Assembly: GCA_023511625.1 (NCBI GenBank)
Contig: JAIMBD010000008.1
Coordinates: 12,969 to 76,968 of the forward strand
Origin: Bacillota bacterium
GTDB taxonomy: Bacteria; Bacillota; Sulfobacillia; Sulfobacillales; Sulfobacillaceae
Reading direction: 5' to 3'
DNA: 64,000 nt
Shown here: positions 11,957 to 63,913 of the stretch, one piece after another
Numbering within the stretch: the first letter of the stretch is position 1
Layout of the letters: each line of letters begins with the position of its first letter
Notes under the pieces: generated by a model
Databases searched by the model: none
The model's input: the letters and a program-made list of their open reading frames with translations, nothing else
What the model was told of the DNA's origin: nothing
Translations under genes and position numbers: made by a program

Positions 11957-12380
11957 TCCTCCCTCAGTGCACGCCTTGCGGCTTCGGATGTCCCGGGTGC
12001 GGTGCACCTCAAGGGGCATCCTGGGCTCTTTTGCTCAAGACCCATCCTCGCAGGGGCGGGGTGCGCCCAGCCCAGTCAGGCCACTCATCCTACATTATAT
12101 ACGACCGGGCTGAATTCCGGCGGCGCGGGTGGCGCATTCGGCGAAAAGGACGGAATGTGACGACAACGGAACCGGTTGGTCGAAATTGTTGACAATGCTG
12201 CGAACTCGAGGCTATGATGCCGGACGACGACGCCCTCGATGAGAGCAGCAGTGGGCGATGAGGGCCGTTTGGAAAGGACCTCCTCCGCGCGGGCTGGGCG
12301 GCCACGGCGCCGGCGGCCATGGGGGGGAATCCGCGTGTCGCCCCAAAAGACAGCAATGGCACGAAGGAGTGAGGACGTCG

Positions 12381-13343
12381 ATGGCGGAGATTGTGTTGGC
12401 GGTGGGGACCTCGCACAGTCCCCAGTTGAGCATTCCCCCGGAAGGGTGGCAGGCGCTCGGCGAGATGGACCGGGCCAATCCAGACATTCCGTTCGCCGAG
12501 CTCGAACGGCGGCGAGCCAAGGGGCTCCAGTCGGCCCTGAACCGCGCCGAGTGGCAGGCGCGTTACGCCCGGTGCCAGGCGGCCATTACCCAATTGGGCG
12601 CGTTTTTGACGGCGCAGCCGCTCGATGCCCTGGTGGTGGTCGGCGATGACCAGGGGGAGCTTTGGGGACCCGAGGAGCACCCGGCGCTGGCCGTCTTCGC
12701 CGGGGAGACGGTATGGGACGTGCCCATCGATCCGAAGACGGTGGCACCGGCCTATCGCCCGGCCATGTGGGCGTGGCACGGTACGGCGCCCGAACCCTAT
12801 GCCGGCCATCCGGCCTTGGCCCGGCACATTTTGGAAGGGTTGACCCGGCGCGGCTTTGACGCCACCCAGGTCACCCAGCAGCTACCTGGGCGCACCTTGG
12901 GGCACGCCTTTACCTTCGTCCGCCGGCGGCTCGGTGTTCCGCCTTCGGTGCCGTTGGTCCCGGTGATGTTGAACGAGTTCTTCCCGCCCAACATTCCTAC
13001 GCCGGCCCGCTGCGTGGCCCTCGGGGAGGCGTTGGGCGACATCCTGGCGAGCTGGGCGGACGACAAGCGGATCGGATTGGTGGCTTCAGGAGGATTGACC
13101 CACTTCGTTATCGAAGAGGAGATCGACCGGGCGGTGCTGGACGCGCTTGTGCAACAGCGTCCCGACCGGCTGGCGGACCTGCCCGAAGCCCAACTGGTGT
13201 CGGGCAGCGCCGAGATCCGCAACTGGATCGTGGTGGCAGCGGCCGTAGCGGGGCGGCTTCGGCCCAACGTGGTCGACTACGTGCCGACCTATCGTTCGGA
13301 GGCCGGAACCGGCGTGGGGATGGGCTTTATGATCTGGCAGTAG
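12381..13343 (+). CDS. Class III extradiol dioxygenase (LigB family), paralog of 10991-11956
   Basis: ATG 12381 follows GAAGGAG. It has the same motif set (MAEIVLAVGTSHSPQ, VVVGDDQGELW, GHAFTF, ASGGLTHF) and both proteins end GTGVGMGF(L/M)(T/I)WQ. Confidence 0.8.
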   Translation: MAEIVLAVGTSHSPQLSIPPEGWQALGEMDRANPDIPFAELERRRAKGLQSALNRAEWQARYARCQAAITQLGAFLTAQPLDALVVVGDDQGELWGPEEHPALAVFAGETVWDVPIDPKTVAPAYRPAMWAWHGTAPEPYAGHPALARHILEGLTRRGFDATQVTQQLPGRTLGHAFTFVRRRLGVPPSVPLVPVMLNEFFPPNIPTPARCVALGEALGDILASWADDKRIGLVASGGLTHFVIEEEIDRAVLDALVQQRPDRLADLPEAQLVSGSAEIRNWIVVAAAVAGRLRPNVVDYVPTYRSEAGTGVGMGFMIWQ

Positions 13344-50169: not shown

Positions 50170-51291
50170 TTGCAGGTGAAAGTCCGGTGCTTTCTCCTGG
50201 GAGCTGGGGCATCTTATGGGTACGACGACGCGCTGCCTTGGGAGGAGCGGCCTCCCTTGACGGACCAGGTGTTCACTGCGGCCGCGCAAAGGAGGGTGTT
50301 GGAGAAGCAGGAGTTCGAGGACCTCCGCCGGTTTTTCTATTTCGTCGAGCAGGGGAGGCCGGTGCTGGAGGCGGTTGAGGTCATGGGGGAGGGCGATGAG
50401 CGACCGGTGGTTTCGCCGGAATGGGTGCCCCAACGGCCGTGTCACGTCGAATCGGTCTTAGGCGCCTTAGACGAGGTGGTGCATGCCGTGGTCGGGGTCT
50501 CCGACTCGATGGGGACCAGAGTTGCTGCCAGAGCGTAAAAGTTGTTAAGTTTAATGCTCTACCTCCTTTATGAACTCTTGCGGTCCTATCTTCCCGCATC
50601 CATTGCGGCCACCAACAACTACAGAAAGATGGCCGAGCTGCGGAAGCGCGCTCCCTTCTGGGTCATTACCCTCAATTACGACCTTCTGCTGGAGCAAGCG
50701 TTTGAAGACGCCGGAATCCCCGTATCGATGTGGCCCTGTCCTTCGCCCAACGGCCTGCGGTTGGTCAAACCGCATGGGTCTATCGGATGGTGGAACAGCT
50801 GGAAGGGAGCCTACGGCTTTGCCCGTCCGGTCCCGTTCCCAGAGCGGGTGCGGTTTGTCTACGGCAACCAGGCCGACATGGAACCGCTGCGGTTTTTGTC
50901 GCTGGACGACGTGAGGACCCTTTCGTTTCGGACCTTTGCCGAGGATAATGACAACTTCTATGCTCCCGTGGTGGTGCCTCCGGTCGGCCCCTCGAAACGG
51001 GAAAATGTGCGCTTTCTAAAACGCCTTTGGGACCGTCTCCCGCGTCTGATCGCGCAGGTTTCTGAGCTGATGGTGGTCGGCTGTTCCATTCGCGCCGAAG
51101 ACTCTAAGTTGCGTGACCTTTTGCAGCGACTGCCCCGGCATGTGCGCGTGGTGGTGGCGGACCCGAATCCAGATCCGGTGATGCAAGGTTTGTGGACTGC
51201 GGCGCGCCACCTTCGCCGCCAAAACGTCCGCACGGTGGGCAGTTTTTCCGCCCTGATGGAGGAGTTGCTGGGTGAACACGCGAGGACCTAG
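50170..51291 (+). pseudogene. SIR2-like (SIR2_2 family) protein interrupted by an in-frame TAA at 50536-50538
   Basis: ORFs 50170-50538 and 50542-51291 share one frame. Motifs FLLGAGASYGY, ITLNYDLLLEQAF, LVKPHGSIGW and LMVVGCSIRAEDSKLRDLL. Confidence 0.75.
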
Positions 51292-51723: not shown

Positions 51724-53691
51724 CTACCGGAGCGCCTTTAGCGTCCCCAACAGCCGTTCGAGGTGGTCGATGCGGTCTCGGAGGTGGCGCACTTGCCCCG
51801 CGCTACGGATCCGCGGACGAGGCGGCAGGACGGTGGCACGACCAGGTTTCGGCTCGGTCGCGAATGCCAGAGCCTCCTGCCGCTGATCGGTCGGAAGCGG
51901 CGCGAAGGGCCCGCCCACCTTGCGAAACGGCATGTAAGCGACTGGCGTCCAAGGGCGCCGGGGGAGGCGGGGAAAGTCTCGGGGGGCAAGGCGTTCGCGG
52001 CCGGTGAGATCCAAGGGCGTCCAGTCCGGAGCAGAGGCGATCACGGGCACCATGGCGTTGCCGTCGGGGGAAATTTCTACCGTGACTTCCTCCGGATTGC
52101 CGACCCATTCCTTTAGGCTCTCCCGATGGCTGTGTCGAATGCCGATGACGAGGCCTTGTCCGTGGTCCGCGTAGGACGACCCGAAGCGGTTGTTTCGAAA
52201 GGCCATGGCGGCGCCGACACGGAGGTAGGGGAAGGGTTCGACCACCCATGGCACACGTTCCCCGTTAGCAGTGCGAAACTCCAGCCGCTGGTCAGACCAG
52301 ATCGGGGTGATGGTCTCCACGGGGCGGAATACTTTGAGGTAGCCGGCGGGGACCCACTCTTCCCCTTGGCGGAGGAACAACGGGATGATCCCCGGCGTCT
52401 GGTCAAACCGGAAGGTTGCAGCCGGAGCTCCGTCTGCATCTTGGTTGAAGGCCCGGACCCACACCGTGCGCTGTTGGCTTGGGTATTCGACCCAGGCGAG
52501 ATCTTGCTCCAATCCGCTGTGCACCTGGGCGTCGAGCACCCGCGTCAGACCGCGCGCGCAGAGGTAGGGGATTTCCTCCGCAGGAAGGGCGCGCACGGAC
52601 CTTTGGAAGGCCTCTTCCACCAGGTCCAAAAACCCTGGACTGAGCGAGGCTCCTCCGGAAACGATGACGTGGTCCGGTAACGCCCCGAGCGCGCGCCGCC
52701 CGTCCGCAAGGCAGGCGGCGAATACCTCCCGGGTTATGGCGGCCAGTTCCTCCCAGCGCAAGGAAACCGGCGGCTCTCCGTCCAGGGAAAACCGGGTTGC
52801 GTGACCGGGACCCATCCGGGACAGGTTGACCTTCTCCCGTTCCAAACGCAGTCGTGCCCATTCCGCCGGGGTTTTTCCCGCATCGTCCCGGAATCGCTCC
52901 CAAAGACGCACATCGATGTCACTGCCTCCGATGGCGTCAGATCGGGTGTCCAGCAGGTGAAACGCGAACCGCGAGCCTGATTGCCGGACCACGTCGACTA
53001 CTGCCCAGTCCGTGGTGCCGCCGCCGGCATCGATGACGCAATAGCGACCGGGAGTCGGCTCAGAGTCAGGGTCTTCCAAAAGGGCTGCCAATAAGACGGC
53101 ATACGGCTCAGCTACCGTGCGGACGTTATTATCCGTGAAGGGCCAACCGGCCTGTGTGGCCAACGTCTTGAGGGTGTAGCCGTAGGCGTAGGACTGCGCC
53201 GGTACTCCGAGAACGTACTGGTAATCTTGCGACAACGGGCCGTGGAGGTAGGCTTCGACGGTCTCGCGCAGGCGGCGCAGGATGGCCTTGGCGGCTGCTT
53301 CCGCGAGTTCCAAACTCTCGCGGAGTAGCTCGGGGTCCCGGAAATGGATCTGGTGTTCGATCGCCCACATTCCGCCGAGGTGACGTACCTCGTTGATCTC
53401 CTCTTGCGGGCGGAACTTGGCCGTCAAGAGGCTCTCTTGCGGCATCCACCGGAGGGAGGCAGAACTTTGGCGGTGGGCGAAGACGATGCGCTTGGGGTTG
53501 AGGAGGAGGGTGCCGGGTTCGGGCGGATAGTCTGCCTCGAGGGCCAGAACTTCTCCGGACAAAGTGGCCAGTGCTCGCGAGGGGAGGGGTGCGAACCCAG
53601 GAAGGCTGACGATGACCCCGGAGGGCTCGCGAAGGGCGCAAGCCGTGAAGGTGGTGCCGAAGTCGATGCCGATGACGCGCGGGGAATTCAT
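51724..53691 (-). CDS. Hsp70/actin-fold ATPase with a non-canonical C-terminal beta-rich domain
   Basis: GAGGAGG SD plus ATG 53691 (ATGA overlap with the upstream stop). Motifs VIGIDFGTTFTA, VIDAGGGTTDWAVV and VIVSGGASLSPGF. The tracked ORF's 164 upstream codons are R/P/G-rich and overlap the upstream gene. Confidence 0.85.
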   Translation of the reverse strand: MNSPRVIGIDFGTTFTACALREPSGVIVSLPGFAPLPSRALATLSGEVLALEADYPPEPGTLLLNPKRIVFAHRQSSASLRWMPQESLLTAKFRPQEEINEVRHLGGMWAIEHQIHFRDPELLRESLELAEAAAKAILRRLRETVEAYLHGPLSQDYQYVLGVPAQSYAYGYTLKTLATQAGWPFTDNNVRTVAEPYAVLLAALLEDPDSEPTPGRYCVIDAGGGTTDWAVVDVVRQSGSRFAFHLLDTRSDAIGGSDIDVRLWERFRDDAGKTPAEWARLRLEREKVNLSRMGPGHATRFSLDGEPPVSLRWEELAAITREVFAACLADGRRALGALPDHVIVSGGASLSPGFLDLVEEAFQRSVRALPAEEIPYLCARGLTRVLDAQVHSGLEQDLAWVEYPSQQRTVWVRAFNQDADGAPAATFRFDQTPGIIPLFLRQGEEWVPAGYLKVFRPVETITPIWSDQRLEFRTANGERVPWVVEPFPYLRVGAAMAFRNNRFGSSYADHGQGLVIGIRHSHRESLKEWVGNPEEVTVEISPDGNAMVPVIASAPDWTPLDLTGRERLAPRDFPRLPRRPWTPVAYMPFRKVGGPFAPLPTDQRQEALAFATEPKPGRATVLPPRPRIRSAGQVRHLRDRIDHLERLLGTLKALR

Positions 53692-55679
53692 GGCGCGACC
53701 TCCTCTTCTCGCGAATACGGTTCCACCCAGGACAAAAGCAGCACCTGCCCGCTCCGGGTGAGGCCGGGGGAACGGGGACACACCCAGCGGGGGGGATCCG
53801 GCTGGGGGCCGAGGAGGCGGTGGCGGGTGGGGTCGTAGGGGACCGGGTCGCTGGTGAGCGAGACCCAGGTGACTCCAAGCGGTCGAAGTGCCTCCTCCAG
53901 GGCGGGAAGGTAGGGACCGAGCCCCAAGTCGAAGCACTTTTCGGTTGGGGAGAGAAGTTCCGATAGCACCCGGTCCTCTCGACGCGCCGCCTGTTCCACC
54001 GCGACGGAGAGGGTGACGATATCCGACACCACTGAGGGCTGTCCGTCGGCTGGATTCGGCGAGGTGGGCGAAGCGGTGGCGACAGGGTGACCGTGGCGGA
54101 GGGCGAGGATTTCGCCCACGAGGTCGTGGACGGCCGGGAACTGCCCCCTCAATGCCTCCAGTGCGTCGGCGACCGCCTCCCAAGCGGCGGAAAACCGCTC
54201 CTCGCGCTTTTGCAGAGTTTCGGCCAAGTGGTCGCGCACCCGCTGCAACAGATCCTCGGGGAGTCCCTCTTCGGCCGCAGGGTCGCGGCGCAAGGCGGCT
54301 ACGACCACGGCTGCCTCAAGGTCTCGGAGGCGTCGCTGCCCTTCGCCGACTCCGGCGAGGAGAGAGAAAAGCGGGGGAAGACGGTCGTAGGGCAAGGTTC
54401 CATGGTCCGCGAGATGGTCGTATAGGGCAGTAAGCCCGTCGAACGGCTCGGGTTCGAAGAGGGACGCCACGGGTACGGGGCCTTCGCCCGCCGCAAGGAA
54501 CGCGCGCAGCCAGGCCGCTTTCAGGCCGGGGAGGGGCTCGGTCCAGCCGACGGCGGGAACTTCTCCGGCGGCCTCTTGGGGATGCCGAATCCACCACCCG
54601 ACCCACCGCGAGACAAAGGCCTGTCGAGCTTGGGCATCGGTCCGGGCAGCGCGCGCCCAGAGCGTGCGGACCGAAGGAGGAAAGGCGTCCAACGGGAGTC
54701 CGTGCCAAGTGGCGATGTGCTGGCGGAAGGGACTGTTCGCACCGCGGAGCGCCACGTCCGCCTCCAGGCGGGCACGAAACCAGGCCGGCCAGGTAAAGCT
54801 AGGGGGGGCCAGCGCCAAAGCGGCGGATGCGAGCGGGTCGGTCGCCGTCGCGGCCTGCTCCAAGGTGGCCACGACGGCGCGGGTCCAGCGGTCCCGTTCT
54901 TCGTCCGTGACCGAGATCGTACCGGCTTCGAAGAGGGAGGGCAGCGCGCGGCGCCCGCGAGCGGTGCGCAGGAGGGCGTGAAAGGCTCGGTCGCGCACGT
55001 CGGGATCGGCCACGGCAAAGAAGCGGCGGATAAGGTCGGTGGAGGCGACCACGAGGGGCTTCCAATTGGGGGAGCTCGGGGGCTCGGGGCGACTGAGCAG
55101 CGAAAGCCATGGGCCAGACCCCAGCGGGCGCGGAGACCTGGCGGCGTCGTCGTGGCTCAGCCGCACCTTGTGCCACAGGGTCAACTGCACCGCAGCAGGG
55201 AGGGTCGACCACTCGGCAGCGGCGTCTTCGGGAATAGCGGATCCGGGCGTGCGGATCCAGGACCACAACGGGGAGGGGTCGCCTTTCTGGCGCCGCTCCA
55301 GTTCTTGGGCGACAACGTCGGCCACCGCAGCGTGCGACGAGGTATAGGCCTGCCACAAAAGCCAGCGCGGCCAGGCCGAAAGCCGTTCCAACAGCCAACG
55401 CCACCCCTCCTCCCAATCGGGGAAGGTCTGCGCCGGGACGATAATCCCTTTGGCCAAGGCGGCGGCCATACCCGCTAGGGAGCCTTCGTGGGGCAACCGC
55501 AAAAGGCGGGCCACCGCCTCTTCGCTCGCGCCATCTTGGCCAGGTTCTGACATCCAGGCCTCGGTGTGCGCGCGCAGGACTCGGAGATACTGGGGCCGCG
55601 CCTCAGCGGGCCGCAGCCGTTGCTTGCGCGCCCATGCTTGAGGAGAGAGTCGAGCTACGCTCCACAGGGCGTCAAACAT
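53688..55679 (-). CDS. Large helical (Trp/Ala/Leu-rich) protein with a C-terminal coiled coil and a GrpE-like beta domain
   Basis: The last ~75 aa, LPALEEALRPLGVTWVSLTSDPVPYDPTRHRLLG....WVCPRSPGLTRSGQVLLLSWVEPY, follow the GrpE C-terminal pattern (L..L...GV..i...g..fDP..H.a.......V....GY...g.vlR.a.V.V). They are preceded by long helices. Confidence 0.75.
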   Translation of the reverse strand: MFDALWSVARLSPQAWARKQRLRPAEARPQYLRVLRAHTEAWMSEPGQDGASEEAVARLLRLPHEGSLAGMAAALAKGIIVPAQTFPDWEEGWRWLLERLSAWPRWLLWQAYTSSHAAVADVVAQELERRQKGDPSPLWSWIRTPGSAIPEDAAAEWSTLPAAVQLTLWHKVRLSHDDAARSPRPLGSGPWLSLLSRPEPPSSPNWKPLVVASTDLIRRFFAVADPDVRDRAFHALLRTARGRRALPSLFEAGTISVTDEERDRWTRAVVATLEQAATATDPLASAALALAPPSFTWPAWFRARLEADVALRGANSPFRQHIATWHGLPLDAFPPSVRTLWARAARTDAQARQAFVSRWVGWWIRHPQEAAGEVPAVGWTEPLPGLKAAWLRAFLAAGEGPVPVASLFEPEPFDGLTALYDHLADHGTLPYDRLPPLFSLLAGVGEGQRRLRDLEAAVVVAALRRDPAAEEGLPEDLLQRVRDHLAETLQKREERFSAAWEAVADALEALRGQFPAVHDLVGEILALRHGHPVATASPTSPNPADGQPSVVSDIVTLSVAVEQAARREDRVLSELLSPTEKCFDLGLGPYLPALEEALRPLGVTWVSLTSDPVPYDPTRHRLLGPQPDPPRWVCPRSPGLTRSGQVLLLSWVEPYSREEEVAP

Positions 55680-57198
55680 GTTGGGGGCGGGGGCCTCCTT
55701 CCTGCGTCACCTCGAGAGCGCGCCGCAGTCTGTCCGCCATGACCTCACGCCAGTGCACGGCGTCGGGCCGGGGCGTTACGGCCACAAACTCGATGTCGGG
55801 GTGGGTGTCGGCGCGCCACACCACCTCCGGCTGCTCGGGAATGATGCAGATCACCGGCGGGTCGAGGTGCCGCGTGCGATACATGAGGGCCGACCAATAC
55901 TGGGACAGCTGCCCCCGAGCGGAGGGGCCGGTGGGTTCATCGGGCCAAAGGCGCTGGCGGGGTTGGTATTTGACTTCCATGATCAAGGCCAAGGGAGCAG
56001 GGAGGTCGCCCCGCCAGTAGGTGAGGAGAAAATCGGGACGGTTGTGCTGACCGCTCATCCACAAGCCATCGGTCTCCTCGGCCCGGCTCCCCTGGTCGGG
56101 GAGCGGCCGATCGTAGTCGAGGAGGAGGGTCCACGGGCCCTGGGTCCAGCGAAAGCGGCTCGCGAGGGGCACCGGGTCGTGTAGGCCCATACGTCGGCCG
56201 AGGCGTACCCAAGTCGGCTCCTCCTGAAGCTTCCAGCCCTGCTCGGCCAAGAGTTGCACCAACTGGCGGAGCACCCAGAGCTCGTAGATCTGCGAGGTGG
56301 GGCGCATACGAGTCAGGTGCGGTCCCCGGCGCTCTGGGGGGCCAAGGCCTCGGCGGAGTTCCTGAAAAGCTGCTTGGGCCCGCCGGTAGCGGCGCCGCCG
56401 CGCGCCCCGTTGGGTCAGTCGCGAAGGGCTTCCCTCGGCGGGCTCGACGGTATCCCACACCGGGTGTTCCAACAAGCGCAAGGCTCGGTGATGCAGCGCC
56501 CGAAGGCGCTGCCGCCGTTCGTCCAGTCCCGCCAAAGCGAGGGGCGCGGCTTCCACCGCCCGCAGGCGCGCGCCTAAGAACCGGGCCAACCATCGCAGTT
56601 GATCCCGCAAGACGCGGTGGTCGCGGGTGTTGAAGGTCAGGCTCGGGGGGCCGGGACGGCGCCGGAATTCCCCTTCCGGCCAAATCAGGACGCGGGTTAA
56701 GGCATCGAGGTAGGCCGCCGCCCGATTCAGATCGGCATCGGCCATCGGCGCGGACCAGTCGGCGTGGGCCAATACCCCTTCCTGGTATTCCCGGCACAAG
56801 CCGGGGACCCAGGACTCCAGTTCGGCGATCATGTGTTCGGGAAAGGACGCATAGTGAGGGCGTTGCGGCTTGACCTCGATGCGGCCCTCCCATAAGACGT
56901 GGTCGCGAAGACGTACCGCCACGGCATACGAGCCCGGAAACCAAAGGGCCTTGGGTTGGTCCCACTCCAGCATCTGGCCGGCCGGCACCGGATCCAACCC
57001 TTCCACAACCAGAGTCGCCGCTTCTGGCCCCTCCCACCGTAGCTGAAACCGGTCATATTCCCGAAGCTCGAGGTGGGCGGGGACAGGCCGCCACTCTCCC
57101 CATGTCCACCCCTCGGTGGGATTCCCCTGGCGCCGCCGCCACTCGACCCGAATGGCTGGCGGCGTGGATTCGTGGCGCACGGCGTATTCAGAGGACAA
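55672..57198 (-). CDS. PD-(D/E)xK nuclease-domain protein (DUF2357/DUF524-like McrC substitute)
   Basis: AAGGAGG SD 6 nt before TTG 57198. The C-terminal RPDFLLTYWRGDLPAPLALIMEVKYQ is a D...E-x-K signature. It lies directly downstream of the McrB-like gene. Confidence 0.8.
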   Translation of the reverse strand: MSSEYAVRHESTPPAIRVEWRRRQGNPTEGWTWGEWRPVPAHLELREYDRFQLRWEGPEAATLVVEGLDPVPAGQMLEWDQPKALWFPGSYAVAVRLRDHVLWEGRIEVKPQRPHYASFPEHMIAELESWVPGLCREYQEGVLAHADWSAPMADADLNRAAAYLDALTRVLIWPEGEFRRRPGPPSLTFNTRDHRVLRDQLRWLARFLGARLRAVEAAPLALAGLDERRQRLRALHHRALRLLEHPVWDTVEPAEGSPSRLTQRGARRRRYRRAQAAFQELRRGLGPPERRGPHLTRMRPTSQIYELWVLRQLVQLLAEQGWKLQEEPTWVRLGRRMGLHDPVPLASRFRWTQGPWTLLLDYDRPLPDQGSRAEETDGLWMSGQHNRPDFLLTYWRGDLPAPLALIMEVKYQPRQRLWPDEPTGPSARGQLSQYWSALMYRTRHLDPPVICIIPEQPEVVWRADTHPDIEFVAVTPRPDAVHWREVMADRLRRALEVTQEGGPRPQHV

Positions 57199-58822
57199 GG
57201 CCAGCCTCCTTCATCTCTTGAATCTCCTCCAACACCGCCAAAGACCGCTCGAGCGCACCCCACGGTGAAGCCTGGAGAAGCCCTCGAAGCGCGGGCAGCG
57301 CCTCGGCGAAATACTCCCATTCGATGCCGGCCCCGCGGAATCGGGAGAGGACGCGGGCGGCGAAGACCTCGTCCCACGCCTTGGCCGCCGTCCAGTGGTC
57401 GGGACCGGCTACCGCCGGCACCGCTCCGACTATCGCCCGCATGGCGTCGAGCGCTCGCCAGCCCACGAGCGGGCGGCGTCGCACAGCGTTTAAGCGGTCA
57501 AAGAAGGCATACTCCTCGGCCGAAAGTGCCGCGGGCGGCGGAGCGAGAGGAAGCGAGACCGGAGGCAAGGGTGGCGGAGGAGCCGATTCGCCGCGTTGAA
57601 AGCGGGCGTGGCGGAGGACGATGTAGGTCACGCGGTCCAAAAACTTGTCGGTCAGCCCATGCGAGGCCTCATCCAAGTTGACGGTGCCGATCCAGTAGAG
57701 GTTCTTCCCGATGGATACGCGCGGCGGGTATCGGTGGCGGTTCAGGCACGAATTTTCCTCATCGGGGGGATAAAGAGGCCACCCGCCGGTATCCGCCGGG
57801 TGCTCCCACAAGCTGAGCCAGGGGGCGAGATAATGTTCGACCCGCGCCAGGTTGAGCTCGTCGAGACACACCACGTGCGGGAGCGCCGGATACTCGGCGG
57901 CATGGAGCAGGACGTTGACGAGATTCCCGAGCGCAGGCCGAAAGAGGCGGGCGGTGGGATCGTAATGGCCGATGACCTGCTCGGAGGAGACCCAGGAGGG
58001 CTCCACCGTCAACCAGGCCAGACGACTGTCGGATTGACGGCATTCGAGATAACCAGCGAGGGCCAAGGCCAGACTCGACTTTCCCAACCCCCCGGTGCCG
58101 CTCAAGACCACGAATTGCCCCGCGGCGAGGCTGGCCAGGAACAACACCAAGTCGTCGGGGTCAAAGACCAAACCGCGGCGCCGGACAAAGTTTAGAAAGG
58201 CTGGAAGCGGCCACTCTACCGCCTTCTCGGCAGGTGCGGTCGCCACGGGGCCGTTGGTTTCGCGGGACATCCGAATTCCTTGTGGACGGCGGGGGAGGAA
58301 CCATCCTTCCTCCTCGCGAATAGCGTCGGCGGGCGGGTTTTCGAACGTCACCGGGGACTGGCGGACGGCCAGATAATATCCCGTGCCTTGCTTTTTTAGG
58401 GTCAATCCGCGGACCACCTTGCCCTCGGCGATGGCCCGCACTTCGCGCGGAGGAGGATCGGCGACGGGACCACGCCAGCGCTCGCGGTGCTCGGCCAGGT
58501 AGGACTCGACCGCAAACGGCGTGGAAGCGGGGATGACCGGGCACCATTCGTATCCGTCCGCGGCGGGCACGGGATGGAGCGCCAGGTGTTTGACCCCCTC
58601 CCCGTCGACTTCGTACGTGACGGTGGTCTCGGCCAGAAAGGCGCTGAGGGTCTGCGACTTCCGCCACCACCCGTTGCGCGAGCGGTCGACGACCCGGGCG
58701 AGTTCGGCCGCGTCGACGGAAAAGGTGGCGGCGTCGGGCCATACCTGTTCGATCTGCAGGGTGGGCAGGTCCTCGCTGCGCTCGGGCAGGTGGTGGAGCC
58801 GCAACCGGCCTACATGCCGCAT
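57188..58822 (-). CDS. McrB-type AAA+ NTPase with an uncharacterised ~230-aa N-terminal domain
   Basis: Walker A VVLSGTGGLGKSSLA, Walker B HVVCLDELNLARVEHY, and the McrB-family segment LYWIGTVNLDEASHGLTDKFLDRV. Confidence 0.85.
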   Translation of the reverse strand: MRHVGRLRLHHLPERSEDLPTLQIEQVWPDAATFSVDAAELARVVDRSRNGWWRKSQTLSAFLAETTVTYEVDGEGVKHLALHPVPAADGYEWCPVIPASTPFAVESYLAEHRERWRGPVADPPPREVRAIAEGKVVRGLTLKKQGTGYYLAVRQSPVTFENPPADAIREEEGWFLPRRPQGIRMSRETNGPVATAPAEKAVEWPLPAFLNFVRRRGLVFDPDDLVLFLASLAAGQFVVLSGTGGLGKSSLALALAGYLECRQSDSRLAWLTVEPSWVSSEQVIGHYDPTARLFRPALGNLVNVLLHAAEYPALPHVVCLDELNLARVEHYLAPWLSLWEHPADTGGWPLYPPDEENSCLNRHRYPPRVSIGKNLYWIGTVNLDEASHGLTDKFLDRVTYIVLRHARFQRGESAPPPPLPPVSLPLAPPPAALSAEEYAFFDRLNAVRRRPLVGWRALDAMRAIVGAVPAVAGPDHWTAAKAWDEVFAARVLSRFRGAGIEWEYFAEALPALRGLLQASPWGALERSLAVLEEIQEMKEAGLVL

Positions 58823-59355
58823 CCCGGCTCTCCTTTCTCCAGCAAAAACTGGCGGCAGATGGCACTTAAGGTGTTGACGAAATCAGAATAAAAATTGTCC
58901 GGAAGGGGACCGACGCGCTGGTCGTCTGCGATCAGCCGGTCTACGGCGGATTTGACCTCGTTGAGCTCCCGTTGCAGACCCTCGACTGCACCCTGTAGCT
59001 CCCGCATCCGGCTTGCGGTCTCGCGCATGACGGCCAGAAGTTCCTCCCGCAGGTCGTGGGCGGCCTCTACCATGTCTGCCAAGGACCGGTCAGGCGCCTC
59101 TGCCTTGGGTTGGGGAGACGACGCTGGAGGTATCGGGTCGGGCCGAGCGTAGTGCTCGAGGAAGTGGAGAGCCAAGGGATGGCCCTGGCGGGCGAGTTCG
59201 GTCATGGCCGAACGAAACCGGAGAAGGTTTTTGGGCTTTATCTCATAGCCAGTAAACCGCGGCAGCCCCATTTTCTGGGCACGTCGTGCAAAATCCAGAA
59301 TCAAATTATCGGGCACGGAGGCCACCTGCGTTTCGGGATCAGGGGCGGCGTGCAT
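58810..59355 (-). CDS. Hypothetical protein: small N-domain, Pro-rich linker and coiled coil
   Basis: ATG 59355 follows AAGGAA. The C-terminal heptad-like segment is DLREELLAVMRETASRMRELQGAVEGLQRELNEVKSAVDRLI. It overlaps both neighbours. Confidence 0.6.
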   Translation of the reverse strand: MHAAPDPETQVASVPDNLILDFARRAQKMGLPRFTGYEIKPKNLLRFRSAMTELARQGHPLALHFLEHYARPDPIPPASSPQPKAEAPDRSLADMVEAAHDLREELLAVMRETASRMRELQGAVEGLQRELNEVKSAVDRLIADDQRVGPLPDNFYSDFVNTLSAICRQFLLEKGEPGCGM

Positions 59356-59500
59356 GAGCGGTTCCTTTCCAACTGGCGATGGCTTCTTTGAGCCAGTCAA
59401 TCTCTTCCTGTAGGAAGGCGACCATTTCGGCCTCGAGGTGCTCGGTGCGCCGTTCGACCTGTTTCCACGCTGTAATCCGCAAACCGGAAAGTTTCCGCAT
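59339..59500 (-). CDS. Small (53-aa) helical ORF heading the operon
   Basis: GGAGGG SD 7 nt before ATG 59500. MRKLSGLRITAWKQVERRTEHLEAEMVAFLQEEIDWLKEAIASW. It overlaps the next gene by 17 nt. Confidence 0.4.
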   Translation of the reverse strand: MRKLSGLRITAWKQVERRTEHLEAEMVAFLQEEIDWLKEAIASWKGTAHARRP

Positions 59501-59548
59501 GGAATTCCCTCCAAAGGGAAAAGTTTCTAGGAAAAGAATTCTCCAAGT

Positions 59549-59945
59549 GCTGTCGAAATTCCTGCCGATTTTTGGCTCATCGGGGAAGGTACCGGGGGTC
59601 GGGCGTATGGAAGGTCCACCCCTCCATGGCGGTCCGCCCGGCGCCGAGGTTTGAGGACGAAAGACTCCTGAAGTCCAAGACACAGTAAGCCAGCAGGAAA
59701 AATCCCCGGCGGTTGCAGTCAAAATCAATACCCCCTGGGAGAATGGGGTGCGGCAGGGCAGAAACGCCCCTCGCAGCCGTGGCCTTGCCACAGTCCCCGG
59801 GGCCTGCAACCCGGTTCGGGCGCACATGGCCGGATTTGCAGGTGCAACGCCGGTGGCGGGCCACGCGTCGGCGATGGCGGCGGCCGTGGGCACGTTGGTG
59901 AGCCCCTCCGCCCGCTTGATTTGGCCGGGTTTGATGCGGTTGCCA
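59549..59945. repeat. Degenerate duplicate (copy 1) of the xdh 3' end plus its downstream flank
   Basis: Colinear matches to 60669-61015: gctgtcRaaMttcctgccgatt (59549 / 60669), ggcgtatggaa (59602 / 60703), and a 30-nt perfect block ggcgatggcggcggccgtgggcacgttggt (59870-59899 / 60940-60969). Confidence 0.7.
59765..59945 (-). pseudogene. 3'-terminal fragment of a molybdopterin-binding dehydrogenase gene (paralogous copy of the 60838-62931 C-terminus)
   Basis: The minus-strand translation GNRIKPGQIKRAEGLTNVPTAAAIADAWPATGV matches GPNNIKGVGELTNVPTAAAIANAVAAATGV of the intact gene. Confidence 0.6.
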
Positions 59946-60189: not shown

Positions 60190-60423
60190 ATGAATGTTTG
60201 TTATACCGCTCACGCTCGGGAACGGATGAAGGAACGCGGCGTCACGGAGGAGGAAGTGGAGGAGTGCTTAAGATCGCCCGACGTCACGTATCCTGACGGA
60301 AATGGGAACGTCAATGCTGTCAAGCATGGAATCCGCGTCGTTTACAGAGACGACGGCCACAGGAAGAGGGTGATCACCGTTGTCCGGCGAGGAGCCTTTT
60401 CTCCGGGATCCGATCGCGTCTAA
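60190..60423 (+). CDS. DUF4258-family toxin-like protein
   Basis: YTAHARERMKERGVTEEEVEECL... fits the DUF4258 pattern. 77 aa. Confidence 0.7.
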   Translation: MNVCYTAHARERMKERGVTEEEVEECLRSPDVTYPDGNGNVNAVKHGIRVVYRDDGHRKRVITVVRRGAFSPGSDRV

Positions 60424-60637
60424 TTACGATGAGGAAGCCGATGCCCTTTATCTTCGGTATCGCACCCTCCCCGTGGCCTTCCAAGAGGAGGTCACCCCCT
60501 CGGTCATTGTCGACCGCGGGCCGGCGCGCGAGGTGGTGGGGGTCGAGGTCTTGGCTCCGCGTCGGAACGCGGCGGATGCCATGCGGTGGTTGCGGGCGCA
60601 CCGTTTGGACGTGGGCCCGCTTAGGTCGTGGGCATAG
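60380..60637 (+). CDS. DUF2283-family antitoxin-like protein
   Basis: NYDEEADALYLRY......E....VIVD....EVVGVEVL fits the DUF2283 pattern. It overlaps the upstream gene by 44 nt. Confidence 0.65.
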   Translation: MSGEEPFLRDPIASNYDEEADALYLRYRTLPVAFQEEVTPSVIVDRGPAREVVGVEVLAPRRNAADAMRWLRAHRLDVGPLRSWA

Positions 60638-60668: not shown

Positions 60669-61015
60669 GCTGTCAAACTTCCTGCCGATTGGAATATGCC
60701 GTGGCGTATGGAAACGCAGTGGGCGGAGTCCCGCAGGGTCGGGGCGCAGGGATGCTGTTCCTTGCATAACCCTACGCAGGCGAACAAGCCCCGCCGCCCA
60801 AACCGGCGCGGCGGGGCCGGCAAGATGCCGAAACGCGTCATCCGGCCGCCGTGCCTTCGGCGGCCAACGCCCAAAACAGGCGCTCGGCACTCAGTGGCAG
60901 GGTGCGCAGGCGCACGCCGGTGGCGGCCGCCACGGCGTTGGCGATGGCGGCGGCCGTGGGCACGTTGGTCAGCTCGCCCACGCCCTTGATGTTGTTCGGC
61001 CCGATCCCCTTGCCC
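60669..61015. repeat. Copy 2 of the degenerate duplication (native xdh 3' end plus flank)
   Basis: See 59549-59945. Confidence 0.7.
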
Positions 61016-62931
61016 CCTTCCACCAGCACGATGCGAAACGGGGGGAGGTCCCGGCTTGAGGGGATCTTGAACTCGCCGAGGTTGGCCGCCGTCACGCGCC
61101 CATCTTCGAGGCCCACGTCTTCCATCACGGCAAACCCGTACCCCATGGCCAGTCCTCCCTCCAGTTGAATTTGATGGGCCACGGGGTTGATGATGTCGGC
61201 CACGTCCACCGCTGCGACCAGGTTCAGCACGCGAATCTCGCCGGTTTCGGGGTCGACCGCCACCTCCGCCACTTCGGCGCAGTAGGAGGTGACGGGCGGC
61301 ACCTCCTCAGGGCGGACGATGACTTCCACTGCCTCCGTCCCGCCGCGGGCGCGAAATGCGGCCAGGGCCTGGTCCAGGGCCTGGAGCAGGGTGACGGTGA
61401 CCCAACTGCCGCCGACTCCGTCGTCATGCGGCAGTTCGCTGGTCGAACCCTGCCGGACCCGCACTTTTTCCGGCGGCAGAGCCAAGGCCCGGACCAAGGC
61501 GCGGTGCACCACCGTGTGCGAGCCCGTGCCGGTCTCGGGCGTGGGGATGACGGCCGTGACTGCGCCGTCGGCCTCGGGCTCAAGCCTAAGGCTCGTCGAG
61601 ACGGGGCGAGTGCCGCGGTTGTAGAGGGCGACGCCCAACCCGTAGCGCCACCCCGCCGGAATCGGGGGGCGGGCGACGGCGGCGAGCGCAGCATCGAGGG
61701 TCTCGAGCCCTCGGTGTTCGAGGGCGCGATGTCCGTGGGCGTCGGCCTCGCCGGTGGTGAGAAGATTGTTCCGGCGCAATGTGATGGGGTCGATGCCGAC
61801 CTTGGCCGCGAGTTCATCTAAGGCCGACTCTACCGCGAAGACGGTCTGCGGCGAGCCCGGCGCACGCATGTGGCCACCGGGCAGGGTGTGGGTGTAGGCG
61901 ATGCGGGAGCGGATGGCGAGAGCCGGAATGCGGTAGGGGCTTCCGGCCTCTCGCACCCCGAAGAGCTCCACGGAAGGCACGGGTTTGTAGCCGGCGTAGG
62001 CGCCGCCGTTAAAAAGGGCGTCGACACAAAGCGCCGTAAGCCGACCCGAGGCGTCGGCCCCGAGCCGCACGCGGATACGGCCGGCGTGGCGGGAATCGGT
62101 GGCTGCGAGGTCCTCGTTGTAGCGGAGCTGAAGGCGCACCGGCCGCCCGAGCCGCCGCGCGAGCTCAAGGCACAGCACCGGCTCGACCACCGACCCCTTG
62201 CCGCCAAAGTCCCCGCCGATGGCCACTGGGTGCACCTCCACCGTTTCCGGGGCGACGCCGTACACCGCCGCCACCTGCGCGCGGAGGCGATAGGGAGATT
62301 TGTTGGTCACCCAAAGGTGCATCTTGCCGTCAGGGTCGACCTCGGCCAAAAAGGCCTGGGGCTCGAGATATCCATGCTGGCCGGCAGGGGTGGTGTAGAT
62401 TTGGTCGACGACGTGGGCCGAGGCGGAAAGCGCCGCCTCGACGTCCCCGCCGCGCCGGATGTCCACCACCGACTGGAGGTTGGGGCCGGATTCAGGGGTG
62501 ACGACGGCCCCTGGATAGGCCCACGGTTCGGAATGGACCCGGGGCGCGTCGGGGGCGAGGGCCTGCTCGGGGTCGAGGACGGCCGAGAGGGGTTCGTAGT
62601 CCACGCGAACCTTGGCTGCGGCCCGGTCCGCGAGCGTCCGGCTTTCGGCTACCACCACGGCTACCGGTTCGCCGGCGTAGCGTGCCTGTTCTCGGGCCAG
62701 GAGGGGGACGTCTTGGACGATGCGCCCATAGGTGCGGGCGGGGAAGTCTTCGGCCGTAAAGACGCCGAGGACCCCGGGCAGCGCACGGGCGGCCGCGGCG
62801 TCGATGTGCACGATGCGGGCATGGGGGAAAGGGCTTCGCACCAAGGCGGCGTGGCAAAGACGGGGGCGGGCGACGTCGGCGGTGTAGGCCATGGTGCCAC
62901 GGACTTTGGCGGGGGCGTCGATGCGCGGCAT
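60838..62931 (-). CDS. Xanthine dehydrogenase/aldehyde oxidase-family molybdopterin-binding subunit
   Basis: AAGGAGG SD plus ATG 62931. RIDAPAKVRGTMAYTAD...RSPFPHARI..ID, GGDFGGKG, and the C-terminal GVGELTNVPTAAAIANAV. Confidence 0.9.
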   Translation of the reverse strand: MPRIDAPAKVRGTMAYTADVARPRLCHAALVRSPFPHARIVHIDAAAARALPGVLGVFTAEDFPARTYGRIVQDVPLLAREQARYAGEPVAVVVAESRTLADRAAAKVRVDYEPLSAVLDPEQALAPDAPRVHSEPWAYPGAVVTPESGPNLQSVVDIRRGGDVEAALSASAHVVDQIYTTPAGQHGYLEPQAFLAEVDPDGKMHLWVTNKSPYRLRAQVAAVYGVAPETVEVHPVAIGGDFGGKGSVVEPVLCLELARRLGRPVRLQLRYNEDLAATDSRHAGRIRVRLGADASGRLTALCVDALFNGGAYAGYKPVPSVELFGVREAGSPYRIPALAIRSRIAYTHTLPGGHMRAPGSPQTVFAVESALDELAAKVGIDPITLRRNNLLTTGEADAHGHRALEHRGLETLDAALAAVARPPIPAGWRYGLGVALYNRGTRPVSTSLRLEPEADGAVTAVIPTPETGTGSHTVVHRALVRALALPPEKVRVRQGSTSELPHDDGVGGSWVTVTLLQALDQALAAFRARGGTEAVEVIVRPEEVPPVTSYCAEVAEVAVDPETGEIRVLNLVAAVDVADIINPVAHQIQLEGGLAMGYGFAVMEDVGLEDGRVTAANLGEFKIPSSRDLPPFRIVLVEGGKGIGPNNIKGVGELTNVPTAAAIANAVAAATGVRLRTLPLSAERLFWALAAEGTAAG

Positions 62932-62968
62932 ACCGTCCTCCTTTACGCGGTCTACCGGGGGATGGCGA

Positions 62969-63913
62969 TCAGGCGAGGGTGAGGACCACCTTGCCGGTGG
63001 CGGGTTCGCGGAAGAGCGACTCCTGGGCTTCGCCGGCTTGTTCCAAGGGGTAGCGGCGCCCAATGACCGGCCGCGCGAGGCCCGCCTGAAAGAGCCCGGC
63101 CAAGGCGTGGTGGATGCGGACGCGCTCCTCCGGCGTCACCTGGCGGTTGGTGTAGCCGCGCACGGAGACGGTTTTGCCGAGGAGGTCCGGCGTTTGGACC
63201 GTCACCGGACCGGTGGCCCCGATGACCACGATGGTGCCGAGCGGCTTCGCCAACCGAAGGTCGAGGTCGAGCGTCTGTGCGCCGCGCATGGTCAAGATGG
63301 CGGGGTACCCTTCGCCGCTCGTCACCGCCTTGAGCCCCTCAAGGTCGTCGTGAGCCAAGGCCGCCTCGGCCCCATGGGCTTGGACGAGTTCGCGGCCGGC
63401 CTCGGTGGAAGCAGTCCCCACTACTCTGAGCCCGTGCGCGCGCCCGATCTGTACCGCGGCCATCCCGACGCCGCCTGAGGCCCCGTGGACCAAAACCCAG
63501 TCCCCAGGCACCGCGCCGCTCAAGGTAAGCGCCCGCCACGCCGTAAGATAGGGGATGCCGATGGCGGCGCCTTGCTCGAAACTCAAATGCGCGGGGAGCG
63601 GCCACACGGCCGCCTCGGGGGCATTGGTCTCTTCGGCGTAGGTGGGCGCGCCGGCCACGTACACCCGATCGCCGACCTGCACCCGGGTCACCCCGGGGCC
63701 TACGGCTATCACCTCTCCGGCCCCGTCGCTGCCGGGGATGTAGGGGACTGCCGCTTGGCCCACAGCCCCAAGGCGGGTCATGCGGTCTACCGGGTTGACG
63801 CCAGCGGCGTAAAGTCGTACCCGGACCTCGCCTGGCCCCGGTGGTGGCAGAGTCTCTTCTTGCAGGTGCATACCTTCGGGCCCGCCGAGGGCCCGTACCA
63901 CGATCGCCCGCAT
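62969..63913 (-). CDS. NADPH:quinone oxidoreductase / MDR-family zinc-type dehydrogenase
   Basis: MRAIVVRALGGPEGM.L.E...P.PGPGEVRVRLYAAGVNPVD, VLVHGASGGVG, and the ending GKVVLTLA. Confidence 0.85.
   Translation of the reverse strand: MRAIVVRALGGPEGMHLQEETLPPPGPGEVRVRLYAAGVNPVDRMTRLGAVGQAAVPYIPGSDGAGEVIAVGPGVTRVQVGDRVYVAGAPTYAEETNAPEAAVWPLPAHLSFEQGAAIGIPYLTAWRALTLSGAVPGDWVLVHGASGGVGMAAVQIGRAHGLRVVGTASTEAGRELVQAHGAEAALAHDDLEGLKAVTSGEGYPAILTMRGAQTLDLDLRLAKPLGTIVVIGATGPVTVQTPDLLGKTVSVRGYTNRQVTPEERVRIHHALAGLFQAGLARPVIGRRYPLEQAGEAQESLFREPATGKVVLTLA

Follow-up and report, generated by a model that had tools for sequence, protein, structure and literature searches.

Why would a bacterial operon carry an Hsp70-like ATPase next to a large protein that ends in a GrpE-like segment? 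We addressed this question for two adjacent genes, g5 and g6, within a 64,000-nt window of JAIMBD010000008.1 (GCA_023511625.1), to which all coordinates refer. Both genes belong to a six-gene bacterial operon, very rare, in which an McrBC-type restriction motor and nuclease are joined to a stripped-down Hsp70 ATPase (Table 1). A preliminary description of this DNA took the pair for a self-contained, re-purposed chaperone cycle. This reading has to be revised, since the two genes close a conserved McrBC-type cassette at its 3' end and since the equivalent of the DnaK catalytic residue K70 is not conserved in g6. The six-gene context had escaped that description.

Table 1. Genes and protein regions of the six-gene cassette (window coordinates)
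Feature	Position	Strand	Description
g1	59339..59500	-	53-aa helical protein, first in the cassette; close homolog in locus L001
g2	58810..59355	-	181 aa; conserved N-terminal ~70 aa, coiled-coil-like C-terminal half (five-homolog alignment)
g3	57188..58822	-	544-aa McrB-like AAA+ GTPase, NxD(E) branch
g4	55672..57198	-	508-aa McrC-like protein; intact PD-(D/E)xK nuclease motif
g5 (D)	53688..55679	-	663-aa alpha-solenoid protein fused to GrpE-like module
g5 residues 1-~465	54285..55679	-	HEAT/ARM-like helical repeats; all-helical in model
g5 residues ~515-653	53721..54137	-	GrpE-homologous module by profile comparison: LVxEIxALR helix, two more helices, six-stranded beta-domain 603-654
g6 (E)	51724..53691	-	655-aa Hsp70-like ATPase; ATG overlaps TGA of g5
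g6 residues 1-385	52537..53691	-	Complete Hsp70-type nucleotide-binding domain (NBD)
g6 residues 386-631	51799..52536	-	Family-specific domain; beta-rich according to the preliminary sequence reading; conserved in homologs
g6 residues 632-655	51727..51798	-	Conserved C-terminal amphipathic helix, predicted at 632-653

The genes g1 to g6 are translationally coupled, and their order is kept across several distant lineages, at least four besides that of the window. Protein sizes along the cassette are 53-181-544-508-663-655 aa in the window, 56-186-559-488-650-640 aa in locus L005, 56-222-547-498-671-618 aa in L008 and 56-220-548-501-556 aa in L097. The g5 and g6 genes are adjacent in L004 too (30% identity, full length), and the pair is never found without the rest of the cassette wherever the contigs permit a view. 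The g1 stop overlaps the g2 start, g4 overlaps both adjoining genes at start and stop, and the g5 stop overlaps the g6 start because the junction reads GCC-ATGA-AT, as had been pointed out earlier. A 53-56-aa gene occupies the g1 position in L001, L005, L008 and L097, and g2 holds a constant position in every locus compared; Pfam returns only weak, coiled-coil-type matches for both. The flanks of the cassette hold genes of defence or toxin type, namely a SIR2-like pseudogene together with a toxin-antitoxin-like pair (DUF4258/DUF2283), and an insertion scar adjoins the cassette as well.

The core of the cassette consists of g3 and g4. The g3 protein displays a Walker A (GTGGLGKS), a Walker B (VVCLDELN) and an N382-L-D384-E385 signature, in which the NxD(E) motif is invariant across four homologs; according to PMC11090510 (section 7), E or D is the usual residue after the NxD motif. 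Its matches include PADLOC PDC-M26A (9e-31), NCBIfam McrB (1e-6) and McrB from the PDB (8e-7), with NLDE aligned opposite NTAD, and it shares 35% identity (E=1e-22) with a CnuB from the CoCoNuT supplement. Its nearest plasmid homologs lie in operons encoding a hypothetical protein, an AAA ATPase and a DUF2357 protein. In g4, the nuclease motif HNRPD389F ... E408-V-K410-Y is invariant in the family alignment, and the Pfam families PDDEXK_7 and DUF2357 weakly match three (best 0.0036) and one (0.008) of the four family members, respectively. The embedding of g5-g6 in this McrB-like NxD/McrC-like cassette places the pair among the CoCoNuT-like Type IV restriction relatives.

The g6 protein is, as judged from its sequence, a non-housekeeping relative of Hsp70. 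It matches Pfam HSP70 (4e-6), which is the best match for all five family members, and its residues 4-282 match the DnaK NBD of the PDB (1.4e-7). With the family profile, hhalign aligns residues 1-385 with residues 1-382 of Hsp70s (probability 99%, E=3e-18), and the match ends exactly where the NBD ends (~385). Furthermore, the top Foldseek matches are all Hsp70s (DnaK at 4e-17). The nucleotide-binding motifs reported for this protein are indeed kept in all homologs (IGIDFGTT, AEPYA, IDAGGGTTDW and SGGASLSPGF), the phosphate-1, phosphate-2, connect-1 glutamate and adenosine motifs being strictly conserved across the family. Its non-housekeeping character, also proposed beforehand, is borne out by scores of 12-26 bits against the DnaK, HscA and PRK11678 models, whose cut-offs are 331-1002 bits: about 25 bits for DnaK and HscA (cut-offs >600 bits) and about 12 bits for the PRK11678 'molecular chaperone' model (cut-off 331 bits). 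The residue aligned with K70 of DnaK is R, Q, H or Q in the family, in a stretch of low-confidence alignment. Beyond residue ~400, said to be unlike a DnaK substrate-binding domain, the profile comparison agrees: no similarity of the C-terminal ~270 aa to the Hsp70 substrate-binding-domain profile was detected (P=0.8). The AlphaFold2 confidence of residues 386-631 is below 50, with five strands only (427-474), while the terminal helix noticed earlier is predicted at 632-653 and its L..R...L......L pattern is kept in L005, L008 and P0004.

The g5 protein gives no match in HMM-versus-sequence searches of Pfam, PDB, NCBIfam or PADLOC. Its AlphaFold2 model (pLDDT 82.9) indicates that residues 1-~465 are a HEAT/ARM-like alpha-solenoid, the best Foldseek matches in the PDB being AP2, importins, CRM1 and Pumilio (best E=8e-3). 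The tryptophan content of g5 is 4.4%, and the earlier statement that its ~480 aa of Trp-rich helical repeats resemble nothing nameable does not stand. At the other end of the protein, the last ~140 residues are homologous to GrpE according to profile comparison. HMM-versus-sequence searches are blind to GrpE here, and the case rests on profile-profile comparison, in which the g5 C-terminal family profile was aligned by hhalign with a 73-sequence GrpE profile. The match covers the beta-domain and the preceding helix (probability 89%, P=2.3e-6, score 40.2, 65-68 columns), and an alignment of g5 residues 515-653 with E. coli GrpE residues 60-191 extends over 127 columns (P=2.7e-6). The GrpE pattern noticed at the end of g5 is thereby substantiated.

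These results suggest that, with a GrpE-like module beside an Hsp70 ATPase in an McrBC operon, a chaperone nucleotide cycle has been reused within an immune system. We favour, with a probability of about 0.6, a reading in which g5 and g6 form an accessory module of a rare NxD (CoCoNuT-like) McrBC-type cassette, probably devoted to sensing or regulation, the cassette most likely acting against phages or invading nucleic acids. Its defence role is proposed from homology and gene context, and g5 may have nucleotide-exchange activity. The GrpE-like module of g5 would dock on the g6 NBD, as GrpE does on DnaK, and its role there would be to control which nucleotide state g6 adopts, or else to keep the solenoid permanently attached to g6. 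Recognition of the trigger, for instance a phage protein, some nucleic acid or a species associated with ribosomes, could fall to the g5 solenoid together with the C-terminal domain specific to the g6 family, and a nucleotide-dependent conformational change would then license McrB, the motor driven by GTP, along with the McrC nuclease. The complex might be held together by coiled-coil contacts involving g1, g2 and the g6 terminal helix. ATP hydrolysis by g6, if any, would have the ligand or the McrBC partners as its trigger, and we propose that a J-protein would for this reason be unnecessary. Precedents exist both for Hsp70-like and HEAT-like modules accompanying NxD McrBC systems (PMC11090510) and for the recruitment of HSP70 together with GrpE by conflict systems of another kind (PMC7159879).

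An unlikely alternative is that g6 binds nucleotide, barely hydrolyses it and acts as a targeting subunit that binds RNA or ribosomes. The GrpE-like module would then be a docking surface kept from its ancestry, which holds solenoid and NBD together outside any exchange cycle. An adaptor-type role of this kind was proposed for CnuD by the CoCoNuT authors, who argued that CnuD homologs hydrolyse weakly and bind RNA (PMC11090510). The non-conserved K70 equivalent fits this view, since the g6 ATPase may then be very slow and the need for an exchange factor less, and so does the missing J-domain, the lack of which had been noted previously: Pfam DnaJ matches none of the six proteins, and their single HPD (McrC-like g4, residue 466) lies outside any J-domain context. 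However, the strictly kept nucleotide-binding motifs exceed what a nucleotide-independent scaffold would need, the conserved FDP..H and helix motifs of GrpE are partly present in g5, and an RNA-binding domain was found in none of the six cassette proteins.

Hsp70/GrpE machines are known to remodel oligomers, and g5 and g6 are tightly coupled to g3 and g4. The pair might on these grounds be a dedicated chaperone for the folding or assembly of the McrB hexamer and the McrC complex, or for their remodelling after firing, with no part in sensing. We consider this improbable, given that g6 has no recognisable peptide-binding domain, that no J-protein is there for client delivery and that the great majority of McrBC systems do without such a helper (census of PMC11090510).

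The chance that the GrpE resemblance itself is fortuitous or convergent, g5 being a HEAT-like scaffold that carries a small, unrelated beta-domain, appears slim. Besides the missing HMMER-level match, this explanation could draw on a 3-sequence GrpE profile that gave a probability of just 14-20%, and on the absence of any GrpE chain among the best 50 Foldseek matches of the full-length g5 model, a search dominated by the solenoid. Yet the shallow profile aligns in the same register as the deep one, column shuffles never reached the real score (0 of 300; mean 11.2, sd 2.2, max 19.3; z ~13), and 15 decoy profiles scored at most 20.5. The signal also stays when the sequence from the window is removed along with its closest homolog (P=2.6e-5). 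In the g5 model, long helices are followed by six beta-strands that coincide with the GrpE-aligned segments, the pLDDT of 10-residue blocks over residues 551-650 being mostly 88-94, with one block at 77. Finally, the module adjoins the gene of an Hsp70 NBD, its expected partner. Least probable of all is a housekeeping or non-defence cassette, which in these Bacillota could serve, for example, stress proteostasis or the repair of nucleic acids: ordinary metabolic genes make up most of its surroundings and no phage genes were found near the cassette, but its core is of McrBC type, its spread is extremely sparse and patchy (7 g5-family clusters among 1.84 billion representative proteins, 1 relative among 185,579 species genomes), its neighbourhood varies by lineage, and the SIR2 remnant, the toxin-antitoxin-like pair and the insertion scar adjoin it.

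These results confirm the observation of the preliminary description and partly support its interpretation. Like E. coli McrBC, the cassette encodes in tandem an AAA+ GTPase and a PD-(D/E)xK nuclease partner in overlapping genes, while it differs by an NxD(E) signature instead of NxxD, an unrelated GTPase N-terminal domain, four extra conserved genes and a similarity to E. coli McrB of only ~31 bits. With DnaK-GrpE-DnaJ it shares an Hsp70-type NBD with all nucleotide-binding motifs and, encoded by the adjacent gene, a partner whose helix, helical bundle and beta-domain are GrpE-homologous. Unlike that system, it has no J-protein, g6 has neither a recognisable substrate-binding domain or lid nor a conserved K70 equivalent, the GrpE module is fused behind an alpha-solenoid of ~500 aa, and the pair is embedded in an McrBC operon. 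The eukaryotic armadillo/HEAT-type Hsp70 exchange factors HspBP1/Fes1 and Sil1 are likewise alpha-solenoid proteins partnered with an Hsp70 NBD; they are absent from the best 50 Foldseek matches of g5, and the resemblance is only a lead.

[quoted passage not shown] 2024, PMC11090510). As in CoCoNuTs, the window cassette has a McrB-like GTPase with an NxD(E) signature, a McrC homolog with DUF2357-type features, an Hsp70-like ATPase and a HEAT-like helical protein in the same operon, short coiled-coil proteins and overlapping reading frames. In contrast, its HEAT-like and Hsp70-like parts are two genes, its McrC homolog retains a PD-ExK motif that seems to be active, where types II and III have an inactivated one or none, neither the CnuH helicase nor the CnuE nuclease of these types is present, and no long coiled-coil was detected in fusion with the GTPase; the g6 C-terminus, devoid of substrate-binding-domain similarity, sets it apart from CnuD as described. 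The recruitment of Hsp70-like and HEAT-like proteins by NxD McrBC systems is thus already known, while PMC11090510 says nothing of any GrpE homology in the helical partner, its text containing neither 'GrpE' nor 'nucleotide exchange'. The GAP1-N2 systems are centred on a TRAFAC GAP1-N2 GTPase and usually include an FNIII-repeat protein to which a DnaJ domain is fused (Kaur, Burroughs, Iyer, Aravind 2020, PMC7159879). While the window cassette has instead an AAA+ McrB-like GTPase and a McrC nuclease, no J-domain, and a GrpE fused to a solenoid, it resembles these systems of Bacillota and Actinobacteria in bringing HSP70 and its exchange factor GrpE together in an operon of predicted biological conflict (PMC7159879).

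Proteins E and D, the products of g6 and g5, appear to be an Hsp70-type ATPase and a partner ending in a GrpE-homologous module. They should be read as the accessory module of a CoCoNuT-like (coiled-coil nuclease tandem) McrBC cassette instead of the self-contained chaperone cycle proposed in the preliminary description, whose observation of the pair and GrpE reading otherwise stand. The cassette is compact, with six minus-strand genes in about 7.8 kb (51.7-59.5 kb of the window) whose starts and stops overlap or abut, including a genuine ATGA overlap between D and E, as reported previously (junction sequence GCC-ATGA-AT). In databases, the encoded proteins are labelled either hypothetical protein or "Hsp70 family protein".

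Genes of the cassette and of its surroundings, in window coordinates
Feature	Position	Strand	Length	Characteristics
g1	59500..59339	minus	53 aa	
g2	59355..58810	minus	181 aa	
g3	58822..57188	minus	544 aa	
g4	57198..55672	minus	508 aa	
g5 (D)	55679..53688	minus	663 aa	
g6 (E)	53691..51724	minus	655 aa	
SIR2-like gene	50170-51291	plus		N-terminal LLGAGASYG; second part matched by Pfam SIR2_2 and PADLOC SIR2
DUF4258 small gene	60190-60423	plus		3e-10
DUF2283 small gene	60380-60637	plus		2e-8
Molybdopterin (xanthine-dehydrogenase-type) gene	60838..63063			

The same six-gene order was found again in a Bacillota metagenome-assembled genome (L005, JAPNUR01), in three GenBank assemblies (L008-L010) and at locus L097. 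It is also kept at L001/L002, where the contig stops after D, and at L004 the D and E homologs lie side by side. At L005, L008 and L097, conservation is limited to these six genes, and the genes flanking the cassette are different in each locus. The cassette is rare enough to have escaped the annotation libraries searched: PADLOC, Pfam and NCBIfam returned no match for g5 or for the g4 protein of the window, and PADLOC returned none for g6. A word-indexed search of 5.8 billion clusters yielded one homolog of D and hmmsearch run exhaustively over 1.84 billion representatives yielded seven, all of one family and none annotated, while a motif search for E in the GTDB species genomes recovered only one true relative. 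Two local features were observed along the way. At the L008 locus (GCA_001953295), the D and E homologs are ~740 bp apart (12016-12756) although they overlap at all other loci; the gap could reflect inserted DNA, a wrongly called start or decay. Furthermore, the translation of the region just 5' of the g1 ATG (window 59500-59560, minus strand) reads ..NFDSTWRILF.., compared with ..DFDSTWRSLM.. in a relative of 63% identity (L001, ~2520-2575), and this conserved segment may correspond either to an earlier start of g1 or to a conserved leader or promoter element.

Residues 1-385 of E are an Hsp70 superfamily nucleotide-binding domain (NBD), in which all the defining motifs are present. Indeed, the phosphate-1 (IGIDFGTT), connect (glutamate of AEPYA), phosphate-2 (IDAGGGTTDW) and adenosine (SGGASLSPGF) motifs are kept in all E homologs. 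Pfam HSP70 is the best match for five of the five family members, even if it covers residues 134-274 of E only weakly (4e-6), and phmmer against the PDB aligns residues 4-282 with the DnaK NBD (1.4e-7). When a profile of the five-member family was compared by hhalign with one of three full-length Hsp70s, residues 1-385 of E paired with Hsp70 residues 1-382 (probability 99%, E-value 3e-18), with the alignment breaking off precisely where the NBD ends. All top Foldseek matches of the E model are likewise Hsp70s (DnaK, 4e-17), which confirms the NBD and nothing beyond it. The protein had been described as a non-housekeeping Hsp70, and it does lie far outside the ordinary DnaK/HscC groups: it scores about 25 bits with the NCBIfam DnaK and HscA models (cut-offs above 600), 12 bits with the PRK11678 "molecular chaperone" model (cut-off 331) and 12-26 bits overall with the curated housekeeping equivalogs, all of whose cut-offs (331-1002 bits) are missed. 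The closest proteins outside the family share about 25% identity, and tblastn of g6 against plasmids returned only ordinary DnaK at about 1e-4.

The C-terminal ~270 residues of E are conserved inside the family, and their profile has no similarity to that of the Hsp70 substrate-binding domain (SBD; P=0.8), so that neither the beta-sandwich nor the helical lid was recovered in this comparison. The AlphaFold2 model, built from three sequences, has a pLDDT of 50 that stays below 50 throughout residues 390-638, and predicts a terminal helix at 632-653. The initial account of E, with the phosphate and adenosine motifs of the NBD followed by a C-terminus unlike an SBD and a terminal helix, was accurate. 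Right after the NBD, residues ~393-408 (window ~52470-52515, minus strand; SGLEQDLAWVEYPSQ) are similar to the linker region between the two Hsp70 domains (G-DVKDVLLLDVTPLS), and the hydrophobic stretch concerned (LAWV, LAFV, VSYV, VSFV) is kept in most homologs. At the level of sequence, this likeness hints that the C-terminal domain may have retained an allosteric coupling like that of an SBD.

GrpE proteins consist of a long helix, a helical bundle segment and a compact six-stranded beta-domain, as seen in the 1DKG structure. Pfam, NCBIfam, PADLOC and PDB HMM-versus-sequence searches gave no GrpE match for g5. A GrpE HMM run against all window ORFs placed three D homologs on top among 663 sequences, with non-significant E-values of 0.7-1.8. 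In profile-profile comparison by hhalign, a shallow GrpE alignment (E. coli, G. kaustophilus and human GRPEL1 sequences from the PDB) paired residues ~590-652 of D with GrpE 126-190 (P=0.0019, score 26.1), a score attained by none of 300 column shuffles (mean 10.5, sd 2.0, maximum 21.8) and above the maximum of 19.3 in a panel of 23 decoy comparisons. With a deep profile of 73 sequences, enlarged by a metagenome scan with GrpE, the match reached a probability of 89%, with P=2.3e-6 and a score of 40.2, and its 65-68 columns kept the register of the shallow alignment. By comparison, the shuffles scored 11.2 on average (sd 2.2, maximum 19.3), 15 decoy profiles at most 20.5 and the reversed profile 14.3; P was still 2.6e-5 when the window sequence was left out together with the homolog closest to it. 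Using the 194-residue C-terminal region of D, the alignment grows to 127 columns, with D ~515-653 facing residues 60-191 of E. coli GrpE; in it, the family-invariant LVxEIxALR lies opposite the AEMENLRRR helix of GrpE and FDPxRH lies opposite FDPxxH.

The AlphaFold2 model of D, obtained from an eight-sequence alignment (pLDDT 82.9), is in line with this assignment. It predicts helices only up to residue 597, the C-terminal ones at 475-513, 515-530, 550-575 and 588-597, and then six short strands at 603-654, which coincide with the aligned segments of the GrpE beta-domain; over residues 551-650, the pLDDT of 10-residue blocks is mostly 88-94, with one block at 77. The modelled C-terminus thus shows the GrpE order of helices followed by six strands. 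Profile homology and predicted topology both agree with the GrpE-like C-terminus suggested earlier for D, and the presence of a GrpE-homologous module is well supported by these two lines of comparison and prediction. Searched at full length against the PDB with Foldseek, the model retrieved only alpha-solenoids (AP2, importins, CRM1 and Pumilio; best E-value 8e-3), the solenoid dominating the search; the "Trp-rich helical repeats" noted previously are therefore HEAT/ARM-like. Two further ORFs deserve mention: at L097, where the cassette is otherwise complete, the D homolog (P0019, 4057-5727, 556 aa) stops before the GrpE-like module, and a 293-aa ORF found in three samples (P0020, L098:510-1391) joins a GrpE-like C-terminus to an unrelated N-terminal part, and no Hsp70 gene follows it directly. 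They may be decay products or a sign that the module is separable.

The operon had also been said to be devoid of a J-domain partner, and both searches agree: Pfam DnaJ has no match in g1-g6 or in the homologs of g1 and g2, and J-domain tblastn found nothing in the window. The sole HPD tripeptide of the six proteins (g4 residues 466-468, THPDIEF, window ~55795-55803, minus strand) was considered as a cryptic J-motif and rejected, as it has no DnaJ match and sits in the C-terminal nuclease domain. No housekeeping dnaK, grpE or dnaJ lies within the window.

The remaining genes include the McrBC core. The g3 protein matches PADLOC PDC-M26A (9e-31), NCBIfam McrB (1e-6) and PDB McrB (8e-7), and carries Walker A (GTGGLGKS) and Walker B (CLDELN) motifs. 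According to Bell et al. (2024; PMC11090510, section 7), an NxD deletion, "usually followed by E or D", defines a major McrB branch, and g3 has N382-L-D-E, invariant in four homologs, opposite N-T-A-D of E. coli McrB. On these motifs, g3 is assigned as an McrB-like AAA+ GTPase of the NxD branch. Its GTPase core is 35% identical (E-value 1e-22) to a CnuB, a CoCoNuT component, given in the supplement of PMC11090510, its closest plasmid homologs belong to Bacillota operons encoding a hypothetical protein, an AAA ATPase and a DUF2357 protein, and its first 220 aa have no domain match. For g4, there was no PDB match, and the family matches are weak (PDDEXK_7 in three of four members, best 0.0036; DUF2357 in one of four, 0.008); the motif HNRPDF...E(V/A)KY is invariant, with D389, E408 and K410 in every member. 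This weak but consistent support suggests an McrC-type architecture (DUF2357 and PD-(D/E)xK) with an apparently active nuclease. Only weak coiled-coil-type Pfam matches were obtained for g1 and g2.

The surroundings of the cassette bear on its role. The SIR2-like gene contains an in-frame stop (50536-50538) and is thus probably a pseudogene; it was rejected as a seventh component because it is convergent with the cassette, interrupted and absent from the other loci. On the other side, the 3' end of the molybdopterin gene (60922-61014) is duplicated at 59852-59944 (73% identity) and a 22-nt piece downstream of that gene (60669-60690) at 59549-59570 (91%). The copies lie about 1.07-1.12 kb apart, the second one just upstream of g1, and the overlapping DUF4258 and DUF2283 genes form a toxin-antitoxin-like module between them; the duplication looks like an insertion scar at the edge of an island. 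A role of the cassette in defence may be inferred from its McrBC core, from the extremely patchy occurrence of the family, from neighbourhoods that vary between loci and from this local company of SIR2-like pseudogene, DUF4258/DUF2283 pair and duplicated xanthine-dehydrogenase-type 3' end.

In such a role, the GrpE module of D would dock on the NBD of E in the manner of DnaK and GrpE, and docked D would either set the nucleotide state of E or tether the solenoid to it. The trigger could be recognised by the D solenoid together with the private C-terminal domain of E, the conformational output would gate the McrB motor and the McrC nuclease, and assembly may be mediated by the short helical proteins and the terminal helix of E. 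A less probable alternative is an adaptor-only arrangement, in which the GrpE module would do no more than offer a surface for docking; it draws on the position of E opposite the catalytic K70 of DnaK, which does not appear to be conserved (R, Q, H or Q in four members, in a stretch that is poorly aligned and modelled). That a GrpE-homologous module is fused to the obligatory helical partner suggests that the nucleotide state is of importance. It also provides a concrete contact that can be tested, between the GrpE beta-domain and the cleft of the NBD.

GrpE homology in an Hsp70 partner is the new and testable element here. We give a probability of roughly 30% to the broader proposal that the HEAT-like and Hsp70-like modules of NxD McrBC/CoCoNuT systems are generally exchange-factor/Hsp70 pairs, in which a J-protein-independent cycle with a built-in GrpE licenses the GTPase-nuclease. 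If true, a chaperone cycle would have been co-opted as an immune sensor or timer switch, whereas the Hsp70-like modules of McrBC-related defence were earlier read as near-inert RNA-binding adaptors. D and E would be a minimal J-protein-free Hsp70/exchange-factor pair, informative for the rewiring of Hsp70 allostery, and the GrpE homology of D offers a hypothesis for the role of the "HEAT-like" regions in CnuD/CnuCD.

Among known systems, CoCoNuTs are the nearest in composition, sharing with the cassette an NxD GTPase, an McrC homolog, Hsp70-like and HEAT-like pieces and small coiled-coil proteins. [quoted passage not shown] Types II and III further comprise the UPF1-like helicase CnuH, the nuclease CnuE (HEPN, Vsr or PLD) and an inactivated McrC nuclease. 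In contrast, the six cassette proteins have no helicase, HEPN or PLD domain, hence neither CnuH nor CnuE, and the PD-ExK motif of g4 appears intact, which places the cassette outside these types. Furthermore, HEAT/GrpE and Hsp70 reside in two genes, which distinguishes them from CnuD as published, and the Hsp70-like protein is devoid of a recognisable SBD. The CoCoNuT Hsp70-like modules were interpreted by the authors as weakly hydrolysing and probably RNA-binding adaptors, and GrpE, nucleotide exchange and J-domains are not mentioned in that work (PMC11090510). Finally, Kaur et al. (2020; PMC7159879) describe GAP1-N2 GTPase conflict systems that combine HSP70 and GrpE and in most cases also have a DnaJ fusion, and the recruitment of a chaperone pair into conflict systems thus has a precedent on a different chassis.
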